From the NCBI GenBank assembly GCA_019828565.1, contig JAHDYR010000005.1, forward strand, positions 335,200 to 399,199: a stretch of 64,000 nucleotides of DNA, written 5' to 3'. The notes beneath the pieces are model-generated. The model was not told where the DNA came from and searched no databases. It saw nothing but the letters and a program-made list of their open reading frames with translations. This document shows, piece after piece, positions 5,552 through 48,152 of the stretch; within the stretch, counting starts at the first letter, position 1; every line of letters starts with the position of its first letter. The position numbers and the translations under genes were made by a program. The stretch comes from Carpediemonas membranifera BICM (Eukaryota > Protista > Fornicata).

Positions 5552-6103
5552 ATGGCCAGTTCGATGGCCGACGAGACTTCGGACGCGGGGCGCCCGACGC
5601 AACCAGGAACAACACCAGATGATCAACAACAGGATGAGAACCCCCAACAGCAGGACGAGAACACGTTGGCCGCCACTCTCCTCAAGCGAATCGAAGAACT
5701 ATTCCAAGAGCTTGCCATCGTGGAGATGGCCGATGCTCCCTCTAACAACACTCCAGCGCACCGCGGCCTCTTCCTCGACATGCCGACGTCCAAGGGTCTC
5801 TCCAACGAGGCTAAGTTCTTGTACCAACTCATCGACGACCTACCGAGACTTGACATCGACGACATCGAGCAGCAGCTCTTCACCCGGATTCAGTACCTGC
5901 TTATCAAGGATAACTACGAGGACGGCACCGCTGAGCGTTTCACAGCATCGGTTCGGGCCGAGCCCCACCCGTCGAGGGACCGCATCATTGAACTAGCTGC
6001 TCGCGCCAAGTCCAAGGGTGACCGTCGAAAGCCCAGCCAGAATTTTCGCAGAGGAGGCCATCAACAGAATCAAGGCCAGGGCAAGCGGTTCCGCCGCACA
6101 TAA
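5552..6103 (+). CDS. YR retrotransposon B gag-like ORF
   Basis: LFLDMP..GL..EA.F.Y...RIQYLLIKD shared with gag of E (18012-18494); directly precedes RT. Confidence 0.85.
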   Translation: MASSMADETSDAGRPTQPGTTPDDQQQDENPQQQDENTLAATLLKRIEELFQELAIVEMADAPSNNTPAHRGLFLDMPTSKGLSNEAKFLYQLIDDLPRLDIDDIEQQLFTRIQYLLIKDNYEDGTAERFTASVRAEPHPSRDRIIELAARAKSKGDRRKPSQNFRRGGHQQNQGQGKRFRRT

Positions 6104-6135
6104 CTTCAAGCACATTACCACTCAGGTTCCCATCA

Positions 6136-6770
6136 ATGAACGAACGATGGAGAACGTGGAAGCGCTTCGGCGCCTCCAGCCAAGTTGTCGCTTGGCTCAG
6201 GAAGGGTGTGCCCATCGACATCACCCAGCCTCCTCCCCCCGCCCGCCCACAACCTACACTTCACTCCGCAGTTTCCCGGAAGCTGAACGGCATGATCGAC
6301 CAGGGTGTGATAGAGCAAACCAGTCTCTCAGACCTTGCACATGCTGCCCCCCTCTTCGCTGTTCCAGAGGGGGAGAGAGACCACCGCATCATTCACGACC
6401 TTCGGATCCTCAACCAGATCACAGCAGACCGCAGATCCTTCCGGCTATACGGAATCAAGCGAGCCGTCTGCCTGCTGGAACAAGACGACTTCATGATGAA
6501 GGTCGACCTCGAGGCGGGCCACCACCAGCTCGGAATCCGTCCATCCGACAGGAAGCTGCTTGGAGTGGTCCTCCCAGACGGCTCAGCCTATCAGTACCGC
6601 ATCCTGGGCTTCGGCTGGAGAGCGGCCCCCTTCATCTTCCAGTCCGTGACCAACCAGGTGGCCCGCATCCTCGCCCTCCGATACAAGATCAAGGTTCTGG
6701 TCTACCTCGACGACTTTCTCTTTGCACACCAGAGCGCGGATTACCTTCGAGAGATCACGCCCAAGCTGCC
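6136..6770 (+). pseudogene. YR retrotransposon B reverse transcriptase, 3'-truncated
   Basis: RIIHDLRILN, KVDLEAGHHQ, LGFGW, YLDD; DIRS-type RT. Confidence 0.9.
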
Positions 6771-6771
6771 A

Positions 6772-8520
6772 GAAGGCACTCGCCTGGTCCGTCCGTAAGC
6801 GGCTGGTTGACGTCGATCGTGCCCTGAAAGACCAGTTTGGAGTAGGTGAGAAGTGCGGCTTGGAGAGGTTGGGAGAGGAGGTGAGTGCAGTCTACCGAAG
6901 TGGCGGTACCGTGCTCACACTCGACCTTTCCAACGCCTATGGATGCTTGTCGAGGGCCTTCACCATGAAGGTGGTGGCGGCCTACATGCCGGCACTCATT
7001 CCGTACCTGTCGACCATGTACCGACGGGGCTTACTTCTCTCTACCTCCGGCATAACAATGAGGTCGGCCGAAGGCATTCACCAAGGAGACCCGCTCGCTA
7101 CAGTCTCCTGGGGTCGGAACAATCTCACAGAACTCGCCGCTCAGAAGTTCAACGAGGTTGGCCTCCGCCTCAACCGTGCCAAGTGCGTGCTAGCCCATAA
7201 GGATGTCGTTGACGGCAACACAACTGGTGGCGTCCCACGGAGACGCGATACCAAGCTGGTTGGTGTTCCCATCGGCTCCGCCACGCACATCATGCGGGAG
7301 CTAGGCTCAGTTAACCGCAAGGATATGGAGCTGCTTGACGCTGCTGCATCGATGGTCTCTGACATTGGCGCGGAAGCCGTCGCCCCTGCCCTCCTAGTGA
7401 CGAAACTGTGTGCCCTCACCAAGTGGGAGCACTTCTTCCGCAATGTTTCGCCGGGCGTGGGTGACATGTTCTAGTCGCAACTGGACTTCGAACGGCAGAA
7501 GGTGGTCCCCACCATCCTGAAGCTGCTCCAGTCCAGCGCCGAGACTGACTTTGCCGCAAGGCTCTGTCTGCCGGTCAGTCAAGGCGGGCTCGGATTGGCC
7601 ATGCCCTCTGTTGTGTGGGCCCCAGCCTATCTGGGTGCCGCACGACAACTCATAGAGCTGAAGGTCGAAAGGCCCGAGGCTCTCATCCAAGACGCACTGC
7701 CATGCATCCCGGCTCTCGCCGCGACGCCCAAGGATTGGCCGACATCATATGGCGATGTCAGAAAGCTCTCACTCGAGAGCACGCAGAAGAAGTTGGTACG
7801 CCTCCTGCAGGATAACATTTCCAGCCAACTGACTGTTTCAGTCGACTCGCCAAACGTGATCAGGTCTCTACTCGCGGCTGATCCAGCCGCTATGGGTCGT
7901 AACCCCTGTGACGAGGGTGCTGCACCGATGCTTCGCAACCATGTCGGCCTTCCTGCCTTTGAGACAGGCCACGACGTCTGTCCGCTATGTCTGGCCCGTA
8001 GTGTTAATCACCGGTCTGTCCCCTGCTCAGCCGAGCATTCTCTTACCTGTCCCTTCCTGAGGGAGGGGCTGGGATCGGAGCGGCACGACCAAATTCGCGA
8101 CACGCTCGCCAAACTGCTGCGCGGGCACCCCTGGCGCGTAAGAGTTGAGCATTGGCTCGGACGGGGCAGCGAGTGGACTGTGGACCGGACCAAACGGGTC
8201 AAGGCGCGGGCGGACCTTCTCTTGACCTGACCGGGTCATACGGAACCCGTTGTGCTTGACGTAGTGGTGAGCAATCACGCGTCTGCATCTATGCGGAGCA
8301 AGAAGGAGCAGTATGCCAACTGGAATGTCCGTGTTATTCCCGTGGTCGTTCTCCAGAGTGGTGGTGTTGGTGTTGTGCATGGGAGAGGATGGACTGATGA
8401 GATGCGCGACGTTTTGGGCCTTGGTGCCGAAACTGTTGGGCAGATTGCCGACGCGGTCATGATGGCCTGTATGCGGCAGCAAGTTCATGTATTCCATGCG
8501 TTCATGCGCCAGGCGGATGC
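6772..8520 (+). mobile_element. Degenerate CRE/R2-like non-LTR fragment (RT, CCHC, restriction-like endonuclease)
   Basis: LDLSNAY, GIHQGDPL, GGLGL, CPLC...H..TC, RHDQIRD, RADL...LDV; YxDD region deleted; stops at 7474 and 8230. Confidence 0.8.
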
Positions 8521-8945: not shown

Positions 8946-9044
8946 TCGGGTTCTACACAGAACCGTGGACGCCTGGGGTGTCGATGCCTCGGGCAGTTTA
9001 TGTCAGTCGTGGCGCAGAAATTTGGATTTCGACACGCGAGCGCG

Positions 9045-9536
9045 ATGTCGACGCAACCGCCTCCAGATGAGAGAATTATGTCTCTTGAGACTAGAATGGA
9101 GCAATTGAGCGAGGAAAACAAGGAAACTAACAACCTGTTACGACTAGCACTCCAGCGAATGGAAGATTCGGACAAGGCTCAGAAGAAGCATCCTGTTTCC
9201 ATCAGAACTAGGAACCTACCTTCCAGATTCGGCCTCAGAGATGAGGCGGAGTTCTTATACGACACTTTGGAGGATATCCAAGAAGGCCGCATTGCGGACA
9301 TGGATCAACTGCAACTCTCGCTAGCGGCGCGCATCAGATACCTCCGTCTCAAGGATGACAACTGGGATGAAGGCACTCCAACGAGGTTCCAGTCAAAGAT
9401 CCGCACCCTCATCACCTCGGAGTCGGGCATCATCTCACAGAATGCCATTGAAGAAGCGGCAGCCGCCGCCATGGCAAAGGGCACACGCCGTTCTTTTCGT
9501 CCAGCCGACAAGGACAAGCGGGCGCGAGCCCATTAA
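9045..9536 (+). CDS. YR retrotransposon C gag-like ORF
   Basis: NLPSRFGLRDEAEFLY...LKDDNWDE, homologous to D gag. Confidence 0.85.
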   Translation: MSTQPPPDERIMSLETRMEQLSEENKETNNLLRLALQRMEDSDKAQKKHPVSIRTRNLPSRFGLRDEAEFLYDTLEDIQEGRIADMDQLQLSLAARIRYLRLKDDNWDEGTPTRFQSKIRTLITSESGIISQNAIEEAAAAAMAKGTRRSFRPADKDKRARAH

Positions 9537-9590
9537 CAATATCAACTACCAAGACTGTACATACTATACATATTGTTGCCCCAGAATAAA

Positions 9591-10603
9591 ATGACCACAT
9601 CAAAGTCAGGAGTCATGGTCAAAATTCAAACGAGGATGACAAGCCCTGTAGAGACCCGTTCGGCAGTAATACTGTTCCATGAACACGGTGTTAGTGCCCC
9701 AAAGATCGTGGAACATTTAGAGCATGCCATATCCATCTCTACAGTCCGTAGAATCATCAAGGCCCACAGAAAGGCCAGAGAAGGAGCTACAGAGAAGAAG
9801 GAGAGGAAGAAGCGTATAACAAAGTTCGAACGGGACGGAAGAATCCTGCAGACAATCATGATGCGTCACGTGGAGCAAGATGACGTCGTAACAGTTGCTG
9901 CGATTAAGAAAGAGCTGGAACTCGCAACGACGACATCAATATCCTCGGAGACGGTTAGGCTGGCTCTCAAGAAGCTTGGATACAGCTACAAGCTCGGAGA
10001 CAAGCGTTGGAAGGAGTGTTCTCCCATCCGCGAGGCGGAGTTCTGGGCGAACTACGCCGTATACGTGCGTGCCAGGCACGCAATGACCGATCTGGTCTTT
10101 CTAGACGAGACTAGCTTTGATCCACATGACAGCCGACGGTATTCCTGGTTCCCGGCTGGACAGCACGTCGTCAAAACTAGCGGGGAACTCACGGTAAGAG
10201 AATCTCTGTCTGCGCCGTACTCGGCTACGAGGGCATTCTACACCGAGCGCTCACTACTGGGACCTACAAGGCGGAGGACTTTATGCCTGTGTTACACAAG
10301 ACGCTCAGCCTCATCGCCGGACAGCACAAGGTGCTTGTCCTAGACAACGCCAGGAGTCACCGAACAACAGATACCACACTGTATGAGCGGCTGTCTGACC
10401 TATACGGTGTCGGATTTATCTTCCTTCCAGGTTATGCTCCGCATCTCAACCCTATTGAGCTTGTCTTCGGTGCGATCAAGCGGAAACTGGCCGCCATCAA
10501 GCCACCTGGCGAGAATCATGCGGAGTATATCATCCGGTTGTTCGATCAGCTCCACAAGTTCTTCGATGTGCCTGGAGCGTACCGCCACTGTGGCTTCTTC
10601 TAA
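9591..10603 (+). pseudogene. DD37E transposase with one frameshift (~10180)
   Basis: N-terminal HTH; VFLDET, VLDNARSH, LPGYAPHLNPIE with 37 residues between the second D and E. Confidence 0.9.
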
Positions 10604-10676
10604 ATGTGCATTTTGTGTCAGCAAGCAACGGGTTCAGCTATGGCGAACTAAAGCTCATTGAAACATAGGAGAACAT

Positions 10677-11155
10677 TTAATTGGCAAACATGCTGTCGTC
10701 GAGCCCTTCTGAAGGCTGAGAATGATCCGCGGTGTCCGGCGGGCGGAAGGCCTCGGCGAGAAGAGAGTAGATTGCAGGAAGGCGATCAACTGGAACGGGA
10801 ATTGACAGGTACTGGGCATGACTGCCGGTCGTAGAAGAGTCCACGCTGATTTGCGAGCTTGACTGGTGACCGGACGACGAGTAACGTGGCGTCGCTGGAG
10901 TACAGAGGCCAATTGGCGGCTCTGTGAGCACAGCAGTTCCTATCTAAGTGTTAAAAAGTTTGTGAAGTTACCTTGGAGGATTTTGACTGCCCATGAAGCA
11001 ACCCGGTCAGTGGACAGCTCTTTGGCAAGATCGTTGCCTTCAATGAGCTCCATCATGACCGAGAGGATTGTTCTGCCATCCTCACGGTTGATTAGAGCCC
11101 TATACGGACAACTAGTCCTGTTGTGGCCAGGGCGGCTGCACAGCGAACACGGCAT
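10677..11155 (-). CDS. Zinc-knuckle accessory gene within the Tc1-like element, putative 32-nt intron 10940-10971
   Basis: MPCSLCSRPGHNRTSC; removing GTAACT...TTAACACTTAGATAG joins it in frame to ORF 10677-10931. Confidence 0.55.
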
Positions 11156-11234
11156 CAGCCTCTTGTTCACAGATCTGGAATGTCTTTAAACTGCTGGAGA
11201 TGATGTGGTCATTTTATTCTGGGGCAACAATACC

Positions 11235-13067
11235 ATGAACGCGAGATGGAACACATGGCGCCGCTTCGGCGCAGCAGAGAGAGTAGTCACCTGGCTGAGG
11301 GAAGGAGTCCCCATAGAGCTCACAGCGCGGCCGCCACCACCGGCCCCACAACGGCGCTTAGAGCCGCGACTCCTCCCGAAAATCAGACAGATGGTCCGGC
11401 AGGGCGTCATCGCTCCGACCCCCATGAGACGCCTGTCACACAGCGCAACCTTGTTCTCGGTTCCCAAGGGGGACGACATACGGCCGTGTCACGACCTGCG
11501 TCAACTCAACAGAGTAACGAGAGAGCGCCGCTCATTCCGCCTCTTCGGCTTGAAGAGAGCGATCAACATCCTCTCCAAACAGGATTGGATGGTGAGCGTG
11601 GACCTTACGGCGGGGTACAACCAGGTCGAGGTGAGAGAGGAGGACAGACGCCTGCTAGGAGTGGTGCTGCCGGACGGGTCAGCATTCCAGTACAATCGTC
11701 TGGGGTTTGGCTGGAGAGCAGCGCCATACTTTTTTCAGGCAATAACGTCGCAGCTGGCCAAGATCGTAGCGATGAGGTTCAAGATCAAGATCCTGGTCTA
11801 CCTGGACGACTTCCTACTGGCCCATCACAACAGAGACGAACTGCTCCGCATGATACCGGAGATACAGAAGGTCTTCGCTGCCCTGGGAGCAACAGTCAAC
11901 GAGAGGAAGACCGATTGGATCCCACGACAGGTTCTCACCTATCTGGGCATCACCCTCAACACCACCGCAATGACTGTGAGACTCCCAAAGGACAAGGCCC
12001 AGAAATACGCAGCCTTCTTGAGCGATGCGACGCGCTCCTCCTCCAAGCCCAACGACGAGGAGACGTGGGCCAAGGTGCTCGGGCAACTCTCCTTCTTCGC
12101 GGCGACCGCTCATGGCTGGAGTCTCAAGCTACGCTACCTACAACAGGGGAGCCTGGACCAGCTCCGGCAGAACAACAGCCTAATCAAAGAGTGGCTGGAG
12201 GTCCTCCGAACCAGGCCCCGCAGATCGTTCGCGGAGATGCGGGCCCTCTGGGGAGCTTCACCCAGTATAGACCTGGCAATCGCGACAGACGCCTCGCAAC
12301 GAGGGTGGGGAGCGGTGTGGTTCCAGGACGAGGAAGGCCACACGCGCGACAAGGGAACCTTCCCGGATCACCTTCAAGAGGCTCACATCAACGTCAAGGA
12401 GCTTTACGCGGTGGTGGAGGGTGTTCGCCTTATCAACTCCTCCAAGCAGCGAGAATTAAGGGTATACACCGACAACACGGCAACGCGGGCGTGGGTGAAC
12501 AAGGCTGGCTCCACGCGGGCACCCCGTCAGGCACTCGCCCTCCTTAATGAGCTGCAGGTGCTGGCAGACCACAAGAACCTAGTGGTCCACGCAGTCCATA
12601 CCCCGGGCAAGGCCAACGTGATAGCAGACAGCCTATCGAGGCAGGAGATTCAGCCGGACGTAACCTTCACTCCCCCGCACATCATAGAGCAGATCACCCT
12701 TTCATGGGGCCCTGTACAACACCTCTGGGAGGCCTCCGACATGGAACACCAGTGGGTCGGCCGGGTCCTTTTGGTCCCGACTACGTCTATACTTGGTCTC
12801 CTAACGCGCAAGCTGAATGCGACTCAGACAGCGACTCGGACTTCATCCCATCCGAGGGCGATGACTTCAGCGATATTCCTCCTCATACCGAACCTGCAGT
12901 CCCCGGAAGTACGAGTGCTCCGGTCCTGGGCGAGCCACACACTCCCGTTCTCAGTGCCACTGAACCAGCTAGAACCAAGGAGGGAGGAGCTCTCCTGGAT
13001 GGTACGACAGGACACTGTCAGACTGCTGGCCCTCTGTCTCCCGACGACACTCACGCATACCTCCTAG
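11235..13067 (+). CDS. Element C RT-RNaseH-reduced MT
   Basis: YLDD; TDASQRGWG, HINVKEL, TDN, NVIADSLSR. Confidence 0.93.
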   Translation: MNARWNTWRRFGAAERVVTWLREGVPIELTARPPPPAPQRRLEPRLLPKIRQMVRQGVIAPTPMRRLSHSATLFSVPKGDDIRPCHDLRQLNRVTRERRSFRLFGLKRAINILSKQDWMVSVDLTAGYNQVEVREEDRRLLGVVLPDGSAFQYNRLGFGWRAAPYFFQAITSQLAKIVAMRFKIKILVYLDDFLLAHHNRDELLRMIPEIQKVFAALGATVNERKTDWIPRQVLTYLGITLNTTAMTVRLPKDKAQKYAAFLSDATRSSSKPNDEETWAKVLGQLSFFAATAHGWSLKLRYLQQGSLDQLRQNNSLIKEWLEVLRTRPRRSFAEMRALWGASPSIDLAIATDASQRGWGAVWFQDEEGHTRDKGTFPDHLQEAHINVKELYAVVEGVRLINSSKQRELRVYTDNTATRAWVNKAGSTRAPRQALALLNELQVLADHKNLVVHAVHTPGKANVIADSLSRQEIQPDVTFTPPHIIEQITLSWGPVQHLWEASDMEHQWVGRVLLVPTTSILGLLTRKLNATQTATRTSSHPRAMTSAIFLLIPNLQSPEVRVLRSWASHTLPFSVPLNQLEPRREELSWMVRQDTVRLLALCLPTTLTHTS

Positions 13068-13918
13068 CCTCCAACCGCCTGGCCCACTTGCAACCATCAG
13101 GGGCCGCTACGGCAGCGGGGTGGGTAGCAAGGTTCCTTAGGGAGCGGGATGAGTCACAATCGCCAGCCTCCCAGTTACGTTCCTTCCTCCAGTCGGAGGC
13201 AGAACACTGTGGCCCAGAGAACGTCTCGAGAAAGGGGTTCTACATAGCGGAGCTCGCTCCGATGGTCTCTACGTGGGTACGCCCGGCAGAAATCATGCGA
13301 GTGGTCCGTGGAGTGGCCAAGACGGCCTCCACGGCGGGTCTGACCGGTGGCTCAAGGGCAATCTCCAAGCCAGAGATGCGCTACCTCATCAGTATCCGGC
13401 TCAGAGACGCCGCGTCGTTCCAGCTAGCACTGTTCGGCACACTGGCCTACCTCACAGTCTCTCGAGGCAGAGAGATCTTCGACCTAAGAGTCAAGGATGT
13501 CACCTTTCAGCCAGACAAGTCGGTCTTGCTGTTCTTCGCACACACAAAGACGGATAGGGCCGTTCGGAAAGCCGTAGCTTACGTAACCATCGATGGATTT
13601 AACCCGGCGCGGGCCTTGCATTCCTGGATAGTCGGCCTCGGCCTCAAGCCCGAACATCGGCTGTGGCGTAGGGTGAAGAGCACGAGCTCCCTAATCGTCA
13701 AGAGAGACGCTTCAATTGACTACTTAAGACAACAGACACAGAACATATTCGGCCCGAAGACAGGGCTACACTCCTTCCGGAAGGGTGGGACTTCCGAGCT
13801 GGCGTTGGGTGGAACGCCGCTCGAGGCGCTGCTTGCACTTGGTACCTGGAGGAGAGTGGAATCGATGAGAGCCTATATTGGCATAGCCATCAGGACCAAC
13901 ACCGGATTCGCGGGGTAG
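12704..13918 (+). CDS. Element C tyrosine recombinase
   Basis: SRGREI, HSFRKG, LGTW...RAY. Confidence 0.93.
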   Translation: MGPCTTPLGGLRHGTPVGRPGPFGPDYVYTWSPNAQAECDSDSDSDFIPSEGDDFSDIPPHTEPAVPGSTSAPVLGEPHTPVLSATEPARTKEGGALLDGTTGHCQTAGPLSPDDTHAYLLASNRLAHLQPSGAATAAGWVARFLRERDESQSPASQLRSFLQSEAEHCGPENVSRKGFYIAELAPMVSTWVRPAEIMRVVRGVAKTASTAGLTGGSRAISKPEMRYLISIRLRDAASFQLALFGTLAYLTVSRGREIFDLRVKDVTFQPDKSVLLFFAHTKTDRAVRKAVAYVTIDGFNPARALHSWIVGLGLKPEHRLWRRVKSTSSLIVKRDASIDYLRQQTQNIFGPKTGLHSFRKGGTSELALGGTPLEALLALGTWRRVESMRAYIGIAIRTNTGFAG

Positions 13919-14498
13919 TTGACGAAGAGCCTCCTCCGCCAGTAAACATCTTGCGTTCCAGCAAGCACCTCCGAGGCGGTAATGGATTCCGCTGGGGGTA
14001 TGCCTGCCCGAGGTCAGACAGGACGTGACTGGGCAGAGAGCACCTATTACGGCAGTTGCGGTATAACCGTTTGGAATGATTGTGTTATCTAGCCAGCGGG
14101 GACCACATTGGTCTTCCAGTGCCACCTAGGCGTGGCGAGTAGATTGGATTTGATATGGTCAGGGGATTCGGAATTTAGATCTCAGACAAATCAGGACTAT
14201 TGCAGAGTAGAGAGAATGAGTGATCCGCAGGCAGATGCAGACATTAACTTACATGGAACCGAAGTTGAAAGCGCCGGAAGAACCCGGTTCAGCCCCTCAG
14301 GCTGTTAAGATGAACCGAAATAAACATCTTACCCCCCCTTTGGATTAAGAACACATGTTAGTTGGCCATGAAATATGGCAAGCCGTGGACCACATGGGTC
14401 ACAGTTGACACCCGGGAGTGTCGGGTCGTGCTGCCTGATCCGATTCGATGGGCGCGCAAATTTCAAGGATCGTCTCGATCCTCTTCAGAAGAACGAGA

Positions 14499-15041
14499 AT
14501 GGCTGATCCGGCCGAAGAAAACGAGCCGGTCACCCAGAAGGACCTCCAAGAACTGAGAGAAGTTGTAGAACGCGCTCTTCAGGCCAGAAGTGCTGAAGAA
14601 CTGCATAACCCCGATGATATCGCCCTCAACGTAGAGGATAACGATGATCAGCAGCTTCAGGACCAAGAAAGCATCGAAGACGAACAGCAGGACGCTGTTG
14701 ACGACATCTTTGATCCCTTTGAGGCTCTTGTGAACCTTCCTAACCGGTTCGGCCTTCGAGATGAGGCTAAGTGGCTTTACGCCATGGAACGTGATCTCAT
14801 CGCTGGCCGCCTTGCAACCATTCCTGCTCTGAGGGTCAATATCTACGGACGCCAGCAACTCCTCCTCCTCAAGGACAGTTGGGACGACGCAACCTCCGAG
14901 CGCTGCTCCAACCTCTTCAAGTCCGCTCCCCCCCGCACTCGGGCCGCCGTCGACATCTTGGTGGCTAAGGCTAAGATCAAGGGCATCAAGAAGCGTGACA
15001 ATTTTCGCGAAAGGGGGGGCAGAAGGACTCACCGCAATTAG
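14499..15041 (+). CDS. Element D gag-like ORF
   Basis: NLPNRFGLRDEAKWLY; position before RT. Confidence 0.85.
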   Translation: MADPAEENEPVTQKDLQELREVVERALQARSAEELHNPDDIALNVEDNDDQQLQDQESIEDEQQDAVDDIFDPFEALVNLPNRFGLRDEAKWLYAMERDLIAGRLATIPALRVNIYGRQQLLLLKDSWDDATSERCSNLFKSAPPRTRAAVDILVAKAKIKGIKKRDNFRERGGRRTHRN

Positions 15042-17721
15042 CTACCAAGCTCCCATCGATGAACGCGCGATGGTTCGTTTGGAAAAGGTTCGGTGCGTCC
15101 CTAGAAGTCTGCAATCTCTTACGCGAGGGCGTTCCCATACAGCTCAAACGCCTGCCCTCACCCCCATCACCTCAGGCCAGCATCGACCGCAAGATCCTGG
15201 ACAAGCTCAAGGACCAGCTCGCCTCGGGGGCTCTCATCAAGTCATCCATGCGCAAGCTCCGTCACAGCGCCCCTCTCTTCTCTGTAGCCAAGGGCGAGAC
15301 CGATATCCGTGTCATCCACGACTTGCGGCGCCTCAACGCCATCACCAAGGAGCGTCGGGTCTTTCGCTTATTCGGCGTACGACGAGCGGTGGGCCTTCTC
15401 GCTCAGGGCGACTATATGGCAAAGATAGACCTCTCGGACGGCTATCATCAGCTAGGCGTGAAGCCCCAAGACGCTCCGCTCTTGGGAGTGGTTCTTCCCA
15501 ACGGCCAGGCTTATCACTATACAGGCCTGTCGTTCGGGTGGACAGCGGCTCCATATTTCTTCCAGCTGGTGATGGTACAAGCCGCGAGGATCCTAGCGTT
15601 GCGCTTCAAGGCCAAGGTGAGTGTGTATCTAGACGACTTCCTGCTGGCCCATGCAGATCAAGCCTACCTCCGATCGATAGGGCCAGAGGTGCTCAGGACC
15701 CTTCAGCTTCTCGGCATCATCGTGAACGTCCGAAAGAGCGAGCTCGAGCCCGTCCAGCTCATCCAGTACCTGGGAGTTCTGCTCGACACACGCTCCATGA
15801 CCATCAGCCTTCCCAAGGACAAAGCAGAGAAGTACCGCAACACCATCAGGGCCGCTTTATCCTCCAACAAGATCACGGCACAGGACTGGGCGTCAGTGAT
15901 AGGCCGCCTGGGCTTCTTCGCCTACACGTCGAGGCTCGTCCACAAGCTGCGTCGGCTACAAGCACTCCGTCCATCATCCGAGCTAGTCCTTCAACCGGCA
16001 GACAGAGCCGAGCTCGAACAGTGGGAAGCCCTCTTACTCTCATGCCCAACAAGACCGTTCGCAGATCTCTTTCCCTCGTGGGATCTCGACCTGTGCGTGA
16101 CCTCGGATGCCTCGGACGAGGGCTGGGGAGCAGTCATCTTCAACCCCGGCACAAGCGACTCTTCCATTCAGGGCACATTCCCAGCCAACATTGCGACGGA
16201 GTCCATCAACGTTCGAGAGCTGTATGCCGTGGTCCGTGCCGTCGAATCCCTTCCAAGCTTCAAGGAGCGCAGGGTGCTCACCGTCTTCACGGACAACTCC
16301 ACAGCCCAGGCTTGGGTCAACCGTCAGGGCTCTACGCACGCGCCCCAAGCTGCGATGGATCTTGTGCAGGAGCTTCACACTCTGCTCGCAAGCCGCAACC
16401 TTATCATCAAGGCCGAGTTCACGCCGGGTCGAGCCAACATCCACGCAGACCGGCTGTCTCGCAACATAGAGGTGCCTCCGACACTGACAGAGCAGCTCCT
16501 AGCTCTGTGGGGGCCGGCCAACACCATCTGGGAGGGCGACGGCCCGAAGGTCTGGCGCGGTCGTCGAGTTCTGGTGGTGAATACAGCAGTGACGAGAGCA
16601 GTGACGAGTCTATGTCTCAAGGCTACAGCTCCGACAGCACCTACGTCCCATCCGAGGACCTGGACCTCGTCGATATTCCTCCTCGTGAAAGACACTATGT
16701 CGCCAGAGTTGCGCCTCCTCAAGCAGGCAGCTCGCCTGAAGCGCTACTTCTCGACCACCGAGCCCCAGAGCGGCATGAAGTCGAGGTACATCGGTCTGGC
16801 CCTTCCAACCTGTTCGAAGGAATCAGACTATCTGATCAACTCTCGCACCTCGAGGAGCAAGGAAGGCGAGCGGTCGCCGGCTGGGTTACCAAGTTCATCG
16901 AGAGTAGAGATCCGAAGCTGTCCCACGCAGCCCAGTTCAGGGCATTCCTGCTCAAAGAGGGAAGGAACTCAGGGCCGGACTCGGTCGGCCGCAAGGCTTA
17001 CTGGGTCATCCAAGCAGCCCCGCGATGGTCTAGCTGGAGAGTTCCTCTCGACGCGCAGGCGATCCAGAAAGAAGCCCGCAAGAGAGCTACCCTGAAGGGT
17101 CTCACCGGAGGGTCACGCCCAGTCTACAGGATCGAGATGAGCGACGCCATCGCGAACCGCAACAGTTCTATCAGGGCATACCAGGCAACCCTGTTTGCGT
17201 CCATGTGCTACTTGACGGTCAGTCGAGGAAGGGAGATCTTCACGCTAACGCCCGGGCGCATCACCTTCGAGCCTAACGGTGACGCCACGCTCGGCATCCC
17301 TCGTACCAAGACCATGATAGGGGTGGCTAAGAGACTCCCTAACGTCTGGATCCAGGGTTTTAACCCAGCTAAGGCTTTACAGCGCTGGCTGACTGGCCTA
17401 TCTCTTCCGGACGATGCCTGCATGTGGCGGGAGGTGACTCCCCGCAATACGCTCAGTCGTCGCAACCCACGGTCAGCTAGGGGTTTGCTGCAGGACGTGA
17501 AGCGCTTATTCGGCCCAAGGTCGGGCTGGCATTCGTTCCGCAAGGGTGCCGCCTCGGAGCTTGCCCTATGTGGCACGCCTCTGGAGGCTCTGCTCGCCAT
17601 GGGTACCTGGCGGGAGGTTCGTAGTTTGCGCTCTTACATCGGACAGGCTATGCGCAACGAGCCTCTCTTCGTCCGCGAAGCGACAAGGAGTCTGCTGCGG
17701 CCTAGCGCGAAGCGTCTTTAA
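14995..17721 (+). CDS. Element D YR ORF with long N-terminal frame overlapping all of RT
   Basis: 908 codons open; C-terminal SRGREI, HSFRKG, GTW...RSY; true start unknown. Confidence 0.88.
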   Translation: MTIFAKGGAEGLTAISYQAPIDERAMVRLEKVRCVPRSLQSLTRGRSHTAQTPALTPITSGQHRPQDPGQAQGPARLGGSHQVIHAQAPSQRPSLLCSQGRDRYPCHPRLAAPQRHHQGASGLSLIRRTTSGGPSRSGRLYGKDRPLGRLSSARREAPRRSALGSGSSQRPGLSLYRPVVRVDSGSIFLPAGDGTSREDPSVALQGQGECVSRRLPAGPCRSSLPPIDRARGAQDPSASRHHRERPKERARARPAHPVPGSSARHTLHDHQPSQGQSREVPQHHQGRFILQQDHGTGLGVSDRPPGLLRLHVEARPQAASATSTPSIIRASPSTGRQSRARTVGSPLTLMPNKTVRRSLSLVGSRPVRDLGCLGRGLGSSHLQPRHKRLFHSGHIPSQHCDGVHQRSRAVCRGPCRRIPSKLQGAQGAHRLHGQLHSPGLGQPSGLYARAPSCDGSCAGASHSARKPQPYHQGRVHAGSSQHPRRPAVSQHRGASDTDRAAPSSVGAGQHHLGGRRPEGLARSSSSGGEYSSDESSDESMSQGYSSDSTYVPSEDLDLVDIPPRERHYVARVAPPQAGSSPEALLLDHRAPERHEVEVHRSGPSNLFEGIRLSDQLSHLEEQGRRAVAGWVTKFIESRDPKLSHAAQFRAFLLKEGRNSGPDSVGRKAYWVIQAAPRWSSWRVPLDAQAIQKEARKRATLKGLTGGSRPVYRIEMSDAIANRNSSIRAYQATLFASMCYLTVSRGREIFTLTPGRITFEPNGDATLGIPRTKTMIGVAKRLPNVWIQGFNPAKALQRWLTGLSLPDDACMWREVTPRNTLSRRNPRSARGLLQDVKRLFGPRSGWHSFRKGAASELALCGTPLEALLAMGTWREVRSLRSYIGQAMRNEPLFVREATRSLLRPSAKRL
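15059..17095 (+). CDS. Element D RT-RNaseH-reduced MT
   Basis: YLDD; SDASDEGWG, INVREL, TDN, NIHADRLSR. Confidence 0.93.
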   Translation: MNARWFVWKRFGASLEVCNLLREGVPIQLKRLPSPPSPQASIDRKILDKLKDQLASGALIKSSMRKLRHSAPLFSVAKGETDIRVIHDLRRLNAITKERRVFRLFGVRRAVGLLAQGDYMAKIDLSDGYHQLGVKPQDAPLLGVVLPNGQAYHYTGLSFGWTAAPYFFQLVMVQAARILALRFKAKVSVYLDDFLLAHADQAYLRSIGPEVLRTLQLLGIIVNVRKSELEPVQLIQYLGVLLDTRSMTISLPKDKAEKYRNTIRAALSSNKITAQDWASVIGRLGFFAYTSRLVHKLRRLQALRPSSELVLQPADRAELEQWEALLLSCPTRPFADLFPSWDLDLCVTSDASDEGWGAVIFNPGTSDSSIQGTFPANIATESINVRELYAVVRAVESLPSFKERRVLTVFTDNSTAQAWVNRQGSTHAPQAAMDLVQELHTLLASRNLIIKAEFTPGRANIHADRLSRNIEVPPTLTEQLLALWGPANTIWEGDGPKVWRGRRVLVVNTAVTRAVTSLCLKATAPTAPTSHPRTWTSSIFLLVKDTMSPELRLLKQAARLKRYFSTTEPQSGMKSRYIGLALPTCSKESDYLINSRTSRSKEGERSPAGLPSSSRVEIRSCPTQPSSGHSCSKREGTQGRTRSAARLTGSSKQPRDGLAGEFLSTRRRSRKKPARELP

Positions 17722-18011
17722 CGCTGCGCTCCTAATCATTCCAAACAATCTTTAAACGCGTTCGTCGAAGCGAAATGGTTTCGCTGGCGCCTTGATCCGC
17801 TCCCGCTATAACAATGCGAGGTTATTGTAGTGTGAGAGTAGCGGTAGTAGTGTGTCCTCTGGGTGAGTGGTTCCCTCTGGGTTGGTGATTATATGTTAGT
17901 TGGCCATGTTATATGGCTGGCTATCTCGCCTCCTGTCACAGGACCATCACTGGCACCTGCGCGCGCCGATCAATGTGCACTTTAGGTCACACTTCGAAAC
18001 GCATCGGCAGG

Positions 18012-18494
18012 ATGTCTGATAACGAAGACCTGCCGCCGCAAGACAGTCCCGATGAGCTTAACAAGCGTATCGAGAAGCTGGAGCGCTTGGTTAAGATACA
18101 ATCGGAAGCAATTTTGGAGCAGCAAGCAGAAGCAGCTCGCCGTCCACTGTTCCTGGAGATGCCAAAGAGGTTCGGCCTCGAAGATGAGGCCAGATTCGTA
18201 TACAAGACCATGAATAGGATCGAGAACGGCGCAAAGATGAAGGAGATCGGGAACATTCTCTTTGCAAGAATCCAGTACCTTCTAATCAAGGACGTGTACA
18301 CTGACGCTACTGCAGAGCGGTTCGAGAACTATTGCAAGGCGAAGGGCGTGCCTGATCGCGACGAGGTCCTGGAACTGGCGGCCCGCGCCAAGTCTAAGGG
18401 CGATAAGCGCGACGCTAATTTTCGCCGCGGTGGCCGCGCTCAGGACCGAGGTCGCACTCAGACAGGATCCTCCGGCAAGAGAGCCCACACCTAA
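18012..18494 (+). CDS. Element E gag-like ORF
   Basis: ATG immediately after A1; homologous to B gag. Confidence 0.87.
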   Translation: MSDNEDLPPQDSPDELNKRIEKLERLVKIQSEAILEQQAEAARRPLFLEMPKRFGLEDEARFVYKTMNRIENGAKMKEIGNILFARIQYLLIKDVYTDATAERFENYCKAKGVPDRDEVLELAARAKSKGDKRDANFRRGGRAQDRGRTQTGSSGKRAHT

Positions 18495-18508
18495 CCCTCT
18501 TTCCATGC

Positions 18509-21179: not shown

Positions 21180-21666
21180 CCACCCCCTCCATTAAACATC
21201 CGCGTTCGAGGGGGAACGGCCGAGGCGAGACGGACTCGCCGGCCTGGATTCATCATTAATTCTTAACTCTGGTCGAGGCGAGATAGACTCGCCGGCCCAA
21301 AGCTTTAGTCCCACAGGGACGTCTTGCGGGATTGTCCCATTTTGGTTGGATTTAAGAGGAGGGCTCTCTGTTATAGAGCCACACTTTGTGGATCCTGTCA
21401 CAGGACCATCACTGGCACCTGCGCGCGCCGATCAATGTGCACTTTAGGTCACACTTCGAAACGCATCGGCAGGTGTCGGAGCCGTTAGGACCTGACCGGA
21501 CCGCGAGACGAGGATTTACCCGGGTCTGTCATAAGAGCTCGGGGAAGCCACCCGAAGTAAATACTCGCCCCCCCATTTTGGTTGGATTTAAGAGGAGGGC
21601 TCTCTGTTATAGAGCCACACTTTGTGGAGCTCGCAACACAGTTGGTCGCTACTTGGCAGTAAAGTT

Positions 21667-21739: not shown

Positions 21740-21946
21740 ATGCATATCATCGATATGTAAGCTATCACGCCTCGGGCGTGGCTCACGCCCTGACACTGCT
21801 GGGTCAGGGTGTGTCAGAACAGGATTCCGGGGACACGAGAAAGATGGCCAAAATATTTAGAAAATCTCGAAAGATATGATTGTGGATACGGTCTTGATCC
21901 GTCCCGATCGCGAGCAGATCGTATCCCTCCAGCAGAAACCGTGAGG

Positions 21947-22486: not shown

Positions 22487-22515
22487 AGGCCAGAGAAGGG
22501 TTAAGCCTGAACCCG

Positions 22516-28298: not shown

Positions 28299-28323
28299 AC
28301 AGTTTCTGATGCTTGGGGGCCAT

Positions 28324-32326: not shown

Positions 32327-32341
32327 TGTAAGTAACGTTAC

Positions 32342-32443
32342 TGTGGGTTCGTGAGAACAAAGCTTTCCAAAGAATAGAGCTCGACACCCATGTGTCGAGC
32401 TGGACGACTCAAGACTATTAAATAATCTATTGATGAACCAACA
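32342..32443 (-). repeat. 5' LTR (102 bp)
   Basis: Copy of 26311-26412. Confidence 0.95.
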
Positions 32444-32939
32444 GGGAGACGCCGCCCAAGAGATCGCAGAGCTCAAAGCCACCGTTCAACAGCTTCAAGA
32501 CGCATTTACTGCCGGCGGCAACGTCCGAGAGACAGTAGATCTGCTTCGGCAAGAGACCACCATGACTTGGAAGCGTCCTGCTTCATCCACTATGCGCGAA
32601 GAGGCGGAGTTCCTCGAGGAGATCTACCGCAGCTTCAAGTTCAATCGAATCAGTGGCTTCGCCGTACTCGCTCGCATCTTCCTCCGTCACCGAGTCCTAT
32701 GGGTGAAGGACCGCTACGGCTACCTAGCCGCCTCTGCTGTCTCCACCGCGGGCATGGCCGCCCTTGCCGAGCGCCACGAGATGAACGAGACGGAGATCGA
32801 GACTCTCGTCCTCCGCACCCTGTCCAAGATCCCCCGCCTGACCGAGAAGAACACCAAGCCCGGCACCGGACATGACGGCGGCAACCGGGGTTTTCACGGG
32901 AAGAAGCCGAAGCGCGCCGGCACGAAGAACTCAAACTAA
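32444..32939 (+). pseudogene. Element G gag (ATG displaced to 26305 by the gypsy insertion)
   Basis: WKRPAS..M.EEAEFLE shared with H gag. Confidence 0.88.
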
Positions 32940-34626
32940 GTCAAAAGAAACCACCCATCAAGGATCCTCGCCCCGGTCCACAGGTCCTAACTCCTCATCC
33001 AACCACAAATCCCACTACTCCTCAATCTCCTCCCCTGTCACCGACGCCTCCTCCTCCCCCGTCCACAGCACCTCCTCCCCCGTCAGTTCCACCATTTCCC
33101 TGCATCAACAGGCAGTGGCGCCTATGGAGGCACTTGGGCGCGCCATCAGAGGTGGTTACGTGGCTACGCGAGGGCGTCCCGATATCCCTAAGAGCGCACC
33201 CTCGTCATCCGCGCCTACCACCAACTCGCGCCAAGGACCGCAAGGCATTCCGCGACCACCTGAAAACCCTCCTGAGCCTGGGCGCGGCAAGCCCATGCCG
33301 GTCTCCCAGCTTGATCTCACCTATCTTCACTGTGCCGAAGACGCCACCAGAGACGCGTCTGATCCACGACCTAAGGGCATTGAACGCAGTGTCAACGGAA
33401 CATCGAACCTTTCGGCTGAAGGGAGTCAAGCAAGCGATGGCCCAGCTTCGCGAAGGAGACTACATGGCACGCTTGGACCTAGTCAAGGGCTACTACCAGT
33501 TAGGGGTCAGGGCCTCGGACAGCCCGCTGCTGGGTTTCGTGGTCGACGGGAGACCCTATGCCTTCAACGTCCTACCCTTCGGCTGGGGCCCAGCGCCATT
33601 CTTCTTCCAAAGGGTGATGCTGACAGCAGCGCAGATCGTAGCACGGATGTTCCCAGGCATCAACTTGACCATCTATCTCGACGACTGGCTCCTGTCCGGG
33701 GACAAGAAGACACTGACCGCTGCGATGCCCGGCATACTACAGCTCCTAGAGAACCTCGGCCTGGTCATCAACAGGAAGAAATCGCAGCTCTCACCCACGC
33801 AGCAGACCGACTTCCTTGGCTTCGTCATGGACTCTGGCCGGCGGGGGATCGCTCTGCAGGACAGCAAGCGGCAGAAGTACCTCTCACGAGTCAGGGAGGC
33901 CTTGGCATCGGGGGCCACGACACACAGCATGCAGCGGTTGTTGGGCAATCTCGGCTTTGCAGCCATCATTTGGCCGGAGGGCCGAGCCGCTATCAGACCC
34001 CTCCAGAGAGCCCAACTGAAGGACCGCTACCGCACACTCATATCCGGCGAAGCGAGAGAAGCACTGATCCAATGGGAGCGCCGCTTATCACGGCCATCTC
34101 CGATAAGGTCCTTCCAAGAGCTGCTTCACCTGTGGGGTCTGTCTCCGACGCTCCACATCACAGCGATGACAGACGCCTCTCACTCAGGACTCGGCGGAGT
34201 GATCACAATCCCGGGCCGTCAACCCTTCACCTTCACCAGGCCGGCCCCGGTGGACGAGCACATCACATTGCTCGAGTTCCGAGCAGTGGAACAAGCAGTG
34301 AGACTGATCCTAGCAGAGCCGTTGACAGACGCGGAGGTCACCATCTACTCCGACTCGGTGGCAGCAGTCAGCTGGTGGAACAAGCAAGGCTCAACCAAGG
34401 CTCCGCAGTTTGTAGACTCAGTCATACGGGACCTGCTACCCACACTGAGCGAAAGGGCCATCAGGATAAGGCTCCTTCACGTCTCTGGTCACTTGAACGT
34501 CCAAGCCGACGCATTGTCGAGGTCCGAAACGCTCTCAGCGCCTCGTCGGATCATCGACAGGATCACAGCCGAGTGGGGTCCCATGCAGAAAGAGATCTGG
34601 CCCTCCGAGTGGCTTGGAGCTCGAGT
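32891..34626 (+). pseudogene. Element G RT-RNaseH, cut by the LINE; resumes at 41873-42256
   Basis: YLDD, TDAS, HITLLE, NVQADALSR; frame open from the gag end without an upstream ATG. Confidence 0.9.
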
Positions 34627-35000
34627 TTTGAGTTTTTGAGTTTTTGAGTTTATTTTTTGATACAGTGCCGGGGTGTCCACCTCCAGGCACTGGCCACAAC
34701 CCGAGCCAGACGAGCGGTGATCAGCCGCAGGAGGGCAACGGTTCTCATAACATTGGAAGCCAGAGCTGCGGCGCCCAAGAGTACTGTTCTGAAGCTGCAG
34801 GGAGAGGAGGGCCTAAAACCCCTTCGAAGAAGGGTAAAAAGATGACCCACGCGGGTCGGCCAGCTCACAACTTCCAGCTCTTGGCGCTGCGGGACTCTGT
34901 GCTCCGAGCCCGATGGGGCTCCCTCAGGACGATGATCGAGGAGGTCCTGAGACCGGGGAGGACGGTGGCGTTTTCCTATGTAAGCGAGGGAACCTACCAG

Positions 35001-41859: not shown

Positions 41860-42249
41860 GGTGCGGAAAATTGCTTGGAGCTCGAGTAGAACACAGCCCG
41901 TCGACGGTCGACGACAGCAGGTTCATAGACATGGACTGGTCGACAGGAAGGTGGCTAGCAGTGACACCCTTCGCGCTCCTATCAGCAGTATATGCAAAGC
42001 TGTGCCACCTCCACATTGCAAGGACCACACAGCCGAGATCCCTACCAAGTGCCCTCGTCCTGCTAGTGTCCGACTGCAGATCGCCGACGGCAGTTGCGCT
42101 GAGAGAGCTGACTCCGCACCGCATGTTCTTCAGAGTCAAAGCGGAGGACGCGGACCTATCAGCGATCACCCCCTGCAGGCGGACGGCACATACCGATTGG
42201 CGGCCCTGTTTGTGGGAGTGACATCTTCACCATCTCCCTCGAGGGTGAC

Positions 42250-43116
42250 ATGTTAAGTGGATTCGTAGACAAGCGCCACGTTGCGGGTGTGCTCCAACAG
42301 TTCTCGGGTTTCTGGGGTGCCCTTCCACCTGACACTAGCAGCATCGAAGTCATAAGAGCATGGGCCAAGGACCAAGCCTCGAGGGTCACCAAGGATACAA
42401 TCACCTCGAAGTGGAGCCTAATCCGTCGCTTCTTCGGCCGGGTGTCATCATGGGAACCACCGCTGGACGCCGACGCAGTCATCAAAGAGCAGGCAAGGAA
42501 CGCTCTTGGGAAGCTTAGAGGGCCTGCTCTCCCGATTCGCGCGCACACTCTGGTTGACAGGCTTCGGGCTGCCCACCCTCAGTCTCGAGACGACGACCTT
42601 TGGAAGGAGGCTTTCGCCTTTGCACTGACCACCTACGCCACGACCTCCAGGCCAGGAGAGATCTATGCCCTGCATGTTGGTGACGTTAGAGCGGAGAGCG
42701 CGCGCCGAGGGCTACGAATCTCCATCCACGGCACTAAGACCCGGCGAGTGGTCGTTGAGAAGCTCGTCCCGAGAGTCGACGGGGAGCTAGACCCGGCTCA
42801 CTGGCTATCTGAGGTCCTAGTCAATAGGATAGATGCAGGCGCGGTGGCCGAAGACCCTCTCTGGTCGCACCCCTACTCAGTCATTGAGGACCAGGTGAAG
42901 GGCATCATCTCCACGCAGGCTCGGCTGCACGGTCTGCGCCGCGGGAGCGCGGCTGACCTGGTTCTGATGGGTATCCCTATCCCGGTTGTTGCGGCGAAGG
43001 GCACATGGGCTGACCAGAACTCATTGATCCGTTATGTGGAAGACGTGCTTCGCCTGGACTACAGCACGTCCGTAGCCCCGTTCAGAGCCTTATTAGAGAA
43101 GGATAAGAAGAGATAA
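42250..43116 (+). CDS. Element G tyrosine recombinase
   Basis: SRPGEI, LHGLRRG, KGTW...IRY. Confidence 0.92.
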   Translation: MLSGFVDKRHVAGVLQQFSGFWGALPPDTSSIEVIRAWAKDQASRVTKDTITSKWSLIRRFFGRVSSWEPPLDADAVIKEQARNALGKLRGPALPIRAHTLVDRLRAAHPQSRDDDLWKEAFAFALTTYATTSRPGEIYALHVGDVRAESARRGLRISIHGTKTRRVVVEKLVPRVDGELDPAHWLSEVLVNRIDAGAVAEDPLWSHPYSVIEDQVKGIISTQARLHGLRRGSAADLVLMGIPIPVVAAKGTWADQNSLIRYVEDVLRLDYSTSVAPFRALLEKDKKR

Positions 43117-43935
43117 GCCCCTCAAAGCCATTGAGGAGTGGCTGCGAGGGGTATGATTGTGGGCCTTAGTGAGGCTAATCATAAACCTTGATGGACAAGG
43201 TGATATTGGCTATTTGGAAGCCGTTAAGGCTTTAGAGTCTCTTTTAGGCTCGATGGTTCAATAATTGCGCATCAGATGAAGAAATTGCGCAACAAAAGTG
43301 AAAAATCGCTAGAACTCCTCAACGAAGCGCCGTTGAGGGCTATAGACCTCGTTTTGAGCTCTTTGTGTTGGCATATGCAATGAATTGCAGCCGGGGCACA
43401 GCTTGCATGAAAGACATCGAGAGTGTCTTAAAGTGCACCGATCGGCTGCAATCGCTTGGGCGGCGACTGGTTCCCTGTGGGAATGGACGGAGTCTACCGG
43501 ATCGTCAGCCTGTCTGACTGGCAAGGCCAGCGGAGCCAAAACTTCGGCGCGAGAGGTCGAGGATGATTCGATACGATCTCAAAGACGGGATCGTGCGTCT
43601 CATAAGGGCGGTTCAGTTGTTCAAGAGCGAACTGAAACCGCGGGGCAGCCTTGCTCCCGATCCCCTCCTTCGGAGGGTGACGCTCGGCATTACGTAAGGT
43701 CGAGCGAGGTAATTTACTCCGGCTTACACAGAGATAGACCCGGGACGATGCGAGAACGCGACACAATAAATTACCTACCCCCCCCTGTGGGAATGGACGG
43801 AGTCTACCGGATCGTCAGCCTGTCTGACTGGTAGGTGAGCGGAGCGCCACGCCCACGCTTCGGCTGAGCGGTCGAGGTTAATCTGATCGAATTGATTCCG
43901 ATCAAATCGTCGCAGTTCAGGAAAGAGAGCAAAGA

Positions 43936-44448
43936 ATGGCAAGCATGAACGCCAATGAGCAAGAAGAGCTAACGCAAGCGACGGCCAAGATCGCAGAACT
44001 CTCCGGAGCTTTGGACAAGCTAAAGGAGCAGCTCGATGACAAGACCGAAGAGAGGAAGCTCAAAACCACCGTGGCTCAGCTTCAGGAGGAGGCAAATCTT
44101 TCCTGGAAACGCCCTGCTTCCCAGTCAATGAAGGAGGAAGCTGAGTTCCTCGAAGACCTCTATCGAGGCTTCAAGTTCGGACGCCTGAACGGCTATGGAT
44201 TGCTCTCGCGCCTGTACCTCCGCCACCGTGTTCTGTGGTGTAAGGACCGGTATGGTTACCTCGTTGGTCTCTCGGTCGCCACTGCCGGCTCGGCGGCCCT
44301 CGCAGAGAAACCCGACATGGGCCCTGAGAAGATTGACAGCGAGGTTGTGTTTAAGACTCTGGCGAAGAACCCGCACCTCAAGGAGCGAACGAGACAGGAC
44401 GAGGATTTTCGGAAGCCGAGGAAACCCAAGAGGGCAAACAATCGGTAA
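43936..44448 (+). CDS. Element H gag-like ORF
   Basis: Clear homology to G gag. Confidence 0.87.
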   Translation: MASMNANEQEELTQATAKIAELSGALDKLKEQLDDKTEERKLKTTVAQLQEEANLSWKRPASQSMKEEAEFLEDLYRGFKFGRLNGYGLLSRLYLRHRVLWCKDRYGYLVGLSVATAGSAALAEKPDMGPEKIDSEVVFKTLAKNPHLKERTRQDEDFRKPRKPKRANNR

Positions 44449-48146: not shown

Positions 48147-48152
48147 AAGGGT

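Follow-up and report, generated by a model that had tools for sequence, protein, structure and literature searches.

How can a retrotransposon whose three coding frames overlap translate the two enzymes that follow its gag? This question is raised by a 64,000-nucleotide stretch of the genome of a free-living protist, Carpediemonas membranifera (contig JAHDYR010000005.1, positions 335,200 to 399,199; the whole stretch is called the window here), in which six divergent elements, designated B, C, D, E, G, and H, share the short sequence T-TTT-C near the 3' end of a gag-like open reading frame (ORF), with a reverse transcriptase (RT) in the -1 frame and a tyrosine recombinase (YR) in the +1 frame. 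The site-bearing elements are new Ngaro-type families of YR retrotransposons in C. membranifera. Our proposal is that (U)_UUU_C(G) near the gag end would form one ribosomal shift site, used in both directions, and that a single mRNA would thereby give Gag, Gag-RT-RNase H (-1), and Gag-linker-recombinase (+1). That a single site serves both shifts is a reading toward which the comparative evidence tilts us slightly.

An earlier note on this DNA, made from the letters alone, had described the six sites, and all of them were found as described, in gag phase NNT TTT CNN and 12 to 24 codons before the gag stop:

6041..6049, plus strand: candidate shift site of element B, AAT TTT CGC, heptamer G_AAU_UUU, 19 codons before the gag stop.
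9492..9500, plus strand: candidate shift site of element C, TCT TTT CGT, heptamer U_UCU_UUU, 13 codons before the gag stop.
15000..15008, plus strand: candidate shift site of element D, AAT TTT CGC, heptamer C_AAU_UUU; the -1 frame opens 1 codon earlier.
18417..18425, plus strand: candidate shift site of element E, AAT TTT CGC; a TAA stands directly before it in the -1 frame.
32889..32897, plus strand: candidate shift site of element G, GGT TTT CAC, heptamer G_GGU_UUU; RT is AUG-free for 182 codons.
44404..44412, plus strand: candidate shift site of element H, GAT TTT CGG, heptamer G_GAU_UUU; RT is AUG-free for 143 codons.

The TTTTC sequence is the sole TTTT run in five of these six gags, the gag of E having one extra run, out of phase. 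As had been claimed, the -1 frame is stop-free from the site into RT in all six elements; in C this holds, by phase arithmetic, across a Tc1-like insertion of 1,660 nucleotides (nt). The nearest upstream stop in the -1 frame lies 0 codons from the site in E (the TAA that the note had pointed out), 1 in D, 5 in G, 7 in B, 14 in C, and 17 in H, and the reported lack of an ATG ahead of RT in G and H was likewise found, the first RT-frame ATG of each standing at the codon given above. The companion claim, that the +1 frame is also open from the site and is the YR frame, stood in part: the frame is open from the site in all six, but only in D and H does it continue without a break to the recombinase domain. 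Further along, it is cut or broken in the other four, B and G being cut by insertions, C having a stop at 12545-12547, and E a break near 20030, so that in B, C, E, and G the +1 frame is the YR frame by homology only. The note had also omitted an intact neighbor, element F, which has TTC, an RT in gag's own frame behind five stops, and ATGs of its own. We rejected F as a refutation, since it belongs to another clade with another frame layout.

Is the conservation of the site more than chance? A metagenome scan returned 67 loci, ten of them from one assembly other than the window's, and six scoreable held-out members of the same clade were available (L001, L002, L003, L005, L006, and L008, the last of them damaged, with its 5' gag replaced and a break in its RT frame). 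Excluded were L004, which repeats the junction of L001, L007, which lacks gag, L009, which falls outside the clade, and L012, which resembles L009, is frame-broken, and is absent from the tree. All six held-out relatives have an in-phase TTT CGN, which lies 7 to 26 codons ahead of the gag stop (P ~4e-5, conditional on the amino acids); four of them also have the preceding 5' T (P 0.012). Over all 12 elements, the 5' T occurs in 10 (P 3e-6, discovery set included), and the base after TTT is C in every one; the following codon is any of the four CGN codons or, once, CAC, and never AGR. In the codon background of these gags, TTT makes up 0.24 of the Phe codons, CGN 0.69 of those for Arg, and AAT 0.18 of those for Asn. 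Same-codon rates in the 14 closest gag pairs were 0.33-0.59, versus 0.42 expected at saturation; because synonymous sites are thus saturated even in the closest pairs, each element is close to an independent trial. The comparison of synonymous sites across family members that the note had suggested gave UUU_CGN in 11 of 12 elements and UUU_CAC in the remaining one, against a saturated gag background. Since TTT-CGN recurs in all six held-out relatives while synonymous sites are saturated, the signal lies at the nucleotide level and is unexplained by the Gag protein. Judged by sequence comparison, conservation of the site is beyond chance. Two further C. membranifera gag families, available as protein only, end in D-F-R and N-F-H, consistent with the pattern.

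In an RT tree built from window and metagenome rows only, from which named reference Ngaro elements are absent, the site-bearing elements form one clade (support, 98/97), and F, I, J, and L009 fall outside it. It counts against the proposed role of the site that F, I, and L009, related elements outside the clade, have no such site near the gag end. No relatives were found in scans of viral contigs or prokaryote genome contigs. An in-phase TTT CGC in L034 was dropped, its gag frame being uncertain and the locus lying outside the clade. Element I has an in-phase GAT TTT CGC in the middle of gag, at 47870, where the -1 frame opens after a TGA; the motif can therefore occur elsewhere.

Turning to the two shifts separately, a -1 shift to RT is likely on the following comparative grounds. 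In five elements (G, H, L005, L006, and L008), the RT domain is preceded by no AUG, the Met position being occupied by Ile or Thr, and their heptamers are G_GGU_UUU (G), G_GAU_UUU (H), A_AAU_UUU (L005 and L006), and C_AAU_UUU (L008). An X_XXY_YYZ heptamer or a known variant of it occurs in five of the 12 elements (G, H, L001, L005, and L006) and a relaxed form in five others, with none in L002 and L003; the known types are present in four of the five elements without an RT AUG versus one of the seven with one (Fisher p 0.045, uncorrected for kinship). The gag amino acids by themselves guarantee an open +1 frame over the gag tail (P=1.0) but not an open -1 frame (P=1e-3 for the window elements), and in the held-out six the -1 frame is again open over the gag tail beyond chance (P 3e-3). 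Furthermore, a protein motif at the start of RT, [FLM]-P-[SCT]-[MIT]-N, is kept, with varying third positions, in each of the 12 rows compared, and the Met of B, D, E, and L001 sits within it (in D at 15059, within L-P-S-M-N); element C is without the upstream part of the F-P-S motif. As the motif residues ahead of the apparent start Met are conserved, the beginning of RT most likely lies upstream of it. Stem-loops 3' of the site were predicted in L006 (z -2.6), L008 (z -3.7), and L005 (z -2.8; 50 nt).

Several observations weigh against this assignment. A scan for pseudoknot-free structures downstream of the site gave nothing significant in B, C, D, E, G, H, L001, L002, or L003, the z-score of L008 varies with the folding window, and a three-sequence consensus fold found no covariation support. 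P-site re-pairing for tandem -1 slippage would be poor in B, C, D, E, and L008. Seven of the 12 elements have an RT AUG 2-38 nt past the gag stop. Two of the seven, L002 and L003, count in favor of the proposal: they are non-sisters in the tree, both lack the 5' U, and their RT AUG, 2 and 8 nt past the gag stop, stands at the Phe of the F-P-S motif or upstream of it. No element of the 12 lacks both the 5' U and an RT AUG, but the association between U loss and RT AUG is not significant on its own (p 0.32).

Such nearby start codons would suit another route, in which TTTTCG would mark where transcription of a subgenomic mRNA starts, or translation would reinitiate at RT and YR, in either case with leaky scanning between the closely paired AUGs. 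The RT and YR AUGs lie 4-11 nt apart soon past the gag stop in B, C, D, and E, element F has a TATA-like TATAAAAG and both AUGs past its gag stop, and L002 and L003 have the RT AUG 2-8 nt past the stop; initiation could serve the elements with an RT AUG near the gag stop or an early YR AUG, and this too speaks against a shift there. The same route is, however, closed to G, H, L005, L006, and L008, for want of an RT AUG, and to L003, for want of a YR AUG. Nor does it account for the conservation as protein of RT residues ahead of the Met, for a -1 frame kept open over the gag tail, or for the apparently new site of L003 falling again in gag phase, and we consider it improbable. The -1 shift remains, in our view, the likely route to RT.

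For the recombinase, a +1 shift seems to us reasonably probable from the same alignments. Besides the invariant C after TTT, the first YR-frame AUG past the site comes only at codon 77 in G, 188 in L001, 307 in L003, and 506 in L002, and with a conservative null drawn from each element's own codons the AUG-less openness of the YR frame had P values of 0.07 (L001), 6e-4 (L002), and 5e-3 (L003); the gag-less L007 gave P 8e-3 for YR-frame openness (conservative null). In L003, whose ORFs are intact, the YR frame has no AUG over the 37 codons ahead of the site or the 307 that follow it. Both L002 and L003 retain the YR catalytic residues.

Here, too, there is contrary evidence. L003 has TTC at the homologous Phe and carries GGG TTT CGC five codons past that ancestral-position TTC, where the 5' T is missing as well. 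A YR-frame AUG occurs 18-34 codons past the site in 8 of 12 elements, and a +1-frame AUG stands upstream of the site, within gag, in L001, L002, L008, and G. Over the first 60 codons past the gag stop, YR openness was not significant under the own-codon null (P 0.44-0.59 each), and the YR entry point is for this reason loosely bounded. Past the gag stop, five window elements gave P values of 0.2-1 each for YR-frame openness. A P value of 2e-4, obtained for the window YR frame being open to its first AUG, was rejected, as it counts the gag tail, where openness is automatic.

These points would suit a simpler reading, in which the site serves only the -1 shift to Gag-RT and YR has a start of its own, either an AUG or a non-AUG codon, which is reached through reinitiation or leaky scanning past the gag stop. 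The early YR AUGs and the automatic openness of the +1 frame over the gag tail both accord with it, as does the outgroup locus L009, which combines an in-phase G_GGA_AAU and an RT at -1 with a YR AUG in the same place. It fails, however, for L003, and in L002 and L001 the YR frame is AUG-free for 506 and 188 codons past the site. The early YR AUGs are mostly by-products of RT Trp and Cys codons, and their positions vary. Moreover, a -1 heptamer has no need of the C after UUU; all 12 elements have this C nevertheless, and those that lost the 5' U retain TTT-CG. We regard a site serving the -1 shift only as unlikely, and the +1 shift stays part of our proposal.

A further alternative is that RT and YR come from spliced mRNAs and that TTTTC supplies the pyrimidines of a 3' splice site. 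The sequences TTTTCGCAG in B and TTTTCGCCAG in L008 would fit it, as does the public gene model P0006, which joins the gag of B to the +1 frame and implies a 28-nt GT-AG intron ending there; introns are known in the host, according to the available part of PMC8516963, and this counts for splicing. Speaking against it, the first AG lies 6-50 nt past TTT, and purine- or G-rich sequence often precedes it; between the site and the RT motif, AG is absent from L005 and L006, and D, E, and G have none upstream inside the open RT frame. A comparison of the elements found no shared splice acceptor or donor hexamer. Splicing is accordingly improbable as an explanation of the site.

How, then, would one site send ribosomes both ways? 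A slow CNN codon following the UUU to which tRNA-Phe is paired would delay the ribosome; re-pairing backward on UUU, which requires the 5' U, would lead into the RT frame, and re-pairing forward on UUC, which requires the 3' C, into the YR frame. In elements with complete heptamers, ordinary tandem -1 slippage would also be possible. Both shifts would be of low frequency, probably near the 1-2% reported for PA-X in the accessible text of PMC5052127. For element D, the predicted products would be of 197, 882, and 1,090 amino acids, and the recombinase would follow a linker of several hundred residues co-encoded with RT. In L002 and L003, where the 5' U has been lost, RT would be made from the AUG just past the gag stop, and UUU_CG would be kept for the +1 shift.

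The bidirectional shift put forward in the earlier note thus fares unevenly: its -1 part is well supported by comparison, and the support for its +1 part is real but weaker. The note had also named TTC, or loss of the preceding T, in intact relatives as speaking against it, and such variants occur in part, L002 lacking the T and L003 having TTC together with a second TTT-CGC without T. Because L002 and L003 lack the T yet have an RT AUG, not every element has the complete T-TTT-C, and its two halves appear to be separable. In favor of the two-way shift are the conservation of the motif as nucleotides, the openness of both alternative frames from it, and the absence of a conserved AUG from either downstream ORF. 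The fullest form of the proposal, in which a six-base site shifts -1 and +1, each shift giving an essential long enzyme (RT-RNase H or YR), and the motif halves evolve separately, seems to us about evenly balanced. Two other schemes were rejected: a second -1 shift from RT to YR, since there is no shared RT-frame heptamer (any in 2 of 10), and, by reasoning only, a -2 shift, for which UUU would need to re-pair on AUU or GUU.

Both halves of the motif are known from viruses. Statements in the note on this point agree with the available text of PMC5052127 and PMC5009743, where UUU_CGN is the +1 motif of influenza A PA-X and amalgaviruses, and of PMC5009743, where G_GGU_UUU and G_GAU_UUU are -1 shift heptamers. 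Like PA-X and the amalgaviruses, as far as those texts describe them, the elements have an in-phase UUU_CGN with all four CGN codons, an overlap of ORF1 with a +1 ORF, and no evident stimulator; they differ in being retrotransposons, in having one UUU_CAC and usually a preceding U, and in having a second long ORF at -1. As at gag-pol -1 sites, G, L001, and H carry G_GGU_UUU or G_GAU_UUU in gag phase with RT at -1, and the A_AAU_UUU of L005 and L006 fits the X_XXY_YYZ pattern; in contrast to such sites, P-site triplets are relaxed in B, C, D, E, and L008, and a 3' stimulator is mostly not predicted.

One site giving several alternative frames has parallels in the portions of PMC5009743 on nsp2 of PRRSV (-2/-1), paramyxovirus P/V/W, and potyviruses. 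In PRRSV, both shifts are backward and the -1 product stops at once, whereas here the shifts would be opposite, each giving a long enzyme; slippage in paramyxoviruses and potyviruses is transcriptional, whereas we propose ribosomal shifts. The latter precedent, in which three frames from one site are established (PMC5009743, same portions), would support polymerase slippage here, adding or dropping a base at the T4 run to give three mRNAs. With a run of only 3-4 T, and with a gag codon phase that is fixed and a CGN third base that is free, both of which fit decoding at the codon level, we hold this to be very improbable, and ribosomal shifting in both directions remains our preferred account.

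We did not find frameshifting in DIRS or Ngaro elements described in the open literature (subscription reviews by Poulter and Goodwin and supplements lay outside this coverage), nor opposite shifts at one site, each giving a long enzyme, in print, the nearest cases being the PRRSV -2/-1 site and polymerase slippage. The combination of the two motif halves thus appears to be new. The long pol/YR overlap is well documented, yet the open papers do not state by which route the downstream ORFs are translated; a two-way shift, if true, would explain the long three-frame overlap of these elements. It would also be a natural site with ribosomal shifts in opposite directions, each giving a long functional product, would extend the PA-X/amalgavirus motif to a cellular retroelement, and would mean that public gene models joining frames by short introns at these loci may be wrong. 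A six-base mutable site, together with natural variants in which the 5' U is lost or an AUG gained, makes the question testable by reporters.

To which class do the elements belong? A Pfam search showed the window to be a transposon nest with Gypsy, long interspersed nuclear element (LINE), Tc1, and Mutator-like (MULE) sequences and many YR retroelements. Proteins encoded there match C. membranifera records at 98-99%. The domains of the elements are RVT_1, RT_RNaseH, and Phage_integrase, several YR matches falling slightly below the curated cutoff; aligned catalytic residues show that the YR domains retain R, HxxR, W, and Y. The gag-like ORF1 has no Pfam match and is named by its position. The features concerned are as follows:

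5552..6103, plus strand: gag-like ORF1 of element B, matching the N-terminal part of P0006.
6043..6798, plus strand: RT frame (-1) of element B, RVT_1, apparently truncated by a non-long-terminal-repeat insertion, as judged from motifs.
9000..9536, plus strand: gag-like ORF1 of element C.
9571..11232: Tc1-like DNA transposon with 43-nt inverted repeats and a TA duplication, between the gag stop and the RT Met of element C.
11235..13918, plus strand: RT-RNase H (to 13067) and overlapping YR frame of element C, the latter with the stop mentioned above and the YR domain in 12551-13918.
14448..15041, plus strand: gag-like ORF1 of element D.
15002..17095, plus strand: RT-RNase H frame (-1) of element D, 697 codons open from the site.
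15004..17721, plus strand: YR frame (+1) of element D, 905 open codons from the site to the recombinase domain, with R/HxxR/W/Y.
18012..18494, plus strand: gag-like ORF1 of element E.
18419..21179, plus strand: RT frame (to 20038) and YR frame (to 20304) of element E, with the frame break mentioned above and the YR domain in 19989-21179.
17931..21628, plus strand: repeats of element E, A1 17931-18019, B1 21336-21392, A2 21393-21480, and B2 21572-21628.
21742..26181, plus strand: element F, an intact outgroup without the site, with split direct repeats; gag 21947-22486, RT 22559-24649, and YR frame 22258-25632.
32433..32939, plus strand: gag-like ORF1 of element G.
32891..34647, plus strand: RT frame (582 codons) and +1 frame (584 codons) of element G.
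43936..44448, plus strand: gag-like ORF1 of element H.
44406..46538, plus strand: RT frame (-1) of element H, with one in-frame TGA, 45105-45107.
44408..47476, plus strand: YR frame (+1) of element H, 1,022 open codons from the site to the recombinase domain.

Ngaro elements are defined by split direct repeats in the order A1-[ORFs]-B1-A2-B2 (PMC8547959), and this layout is present in element E and in the outgroup F, the two elements for which repeats were resolved, the remainder being nested or cut. Unlike DIRS1, which has inverted terminal repeats and an internal complementary region (ICR), E and F thus have split direct repeats, and a repeat search of the window found no inverted terminal repeats or ICR of DIRS1 type around the elements. 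Like Ngaro in the available parts of PMC8547959 and PMC9210276, the elements have a gag-like ORF1, an RT/RNase H ORF2, and a YR ORF3 (HxxR, catalytic Tyr), with overlapping ORFs; unlike the Ngaro elements described, their YR frame extends across the whole of the RT ORF as far as the end of gag, where a conserved shift-like motif stands. Those same parts do not state an expression mechanism. A long pol/YR overlap is already known in the DIRS order (PMC3266345 and PMC9210276, in the text available), and DIRS1-like elements resemble ours in having three ORFs and such an overlap, seen in half of 28 annotated elements according to the available parts of PMC3266345 and PMC7192593, which do not describe a shared entry site.

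Elements outside the site-bearing clade differ in organization. Past the gag stop of F (22484-22561), a YR AUG at 22516 and the TATA-like TATAAAAG are followed by the RT AUG at 22559, an arrangement which suggests that the F/I/J lineage uses another route of expression. In element I (47577-50168), the gag stop TAA is followed in frame by an RT-RNase H that ends in a chromodomain-like match below cutoff. In L009 (L009:180-187), G_GGA_AAU stands in gag phase with RT at -1, AUG-free for 165 codons, and a YR AUG overlapping the heptamer; in L012 (L012:225-232), G_GGA_AAC stands in gag phase, and gag reads in frame into the RT N terminus.

More distantly, a gag-like ORF with RT at -1 was seen in 9 of 57 surveyed loci, and five of the nine have U_UUA_AAC or A_AAA_AAC in gag phase within the overlap, the automatic gag call being doubtful or wrong in three of five loci inspected:

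L010:741, L011:1108, L015:361, L019:1623, and L024:602: heptamers of the distant loci.

These heptamers in distant DIRS relatives hint that frameshifting may be common across the order. In L010 and L011, an AUG overlaps the gag stop as well. Of 16 distant loci whose RT lies at +1, two, L016 and L037, carry an in-phase TTT CGT in the gag/RT overlap (CCC TTT CGT and CCA TTT CGT), a sequence close to the PA-X motif.

Finally, some minor observations concern the composition of the window. Both the RT and the +1 frame of element G end at a T-rich junction adjoining a minus-strand LINE, past which an orphan YR ORF (window 42112-43116), 49% identical to that of H, is probably the detached 3' part of G. 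A Dam-like methyltransferase match just under cutoff lies in a G/H-type fragment (window 55603-56277), and precomputed PF05869 matches are present on P0003 and P0004; together they suggest that some members carry a methyltransferase-like tail, a domain that Ngaro elements are described as lacking in the available text of PMC3266345. Terminal repeats of neighboring elements are 78-88% alike, head to tail (window 8522-8943 and 17680-17918), which suggests insertion into or beside each other's ends. A tandem array of 51-52-nt units occupies window 39817-40311, where the two ORFs of the LINE meet, and the 3' part of a Sir2-family gene (window 63421-64000, minus strand) is the sole host-type gene recognized in the window.

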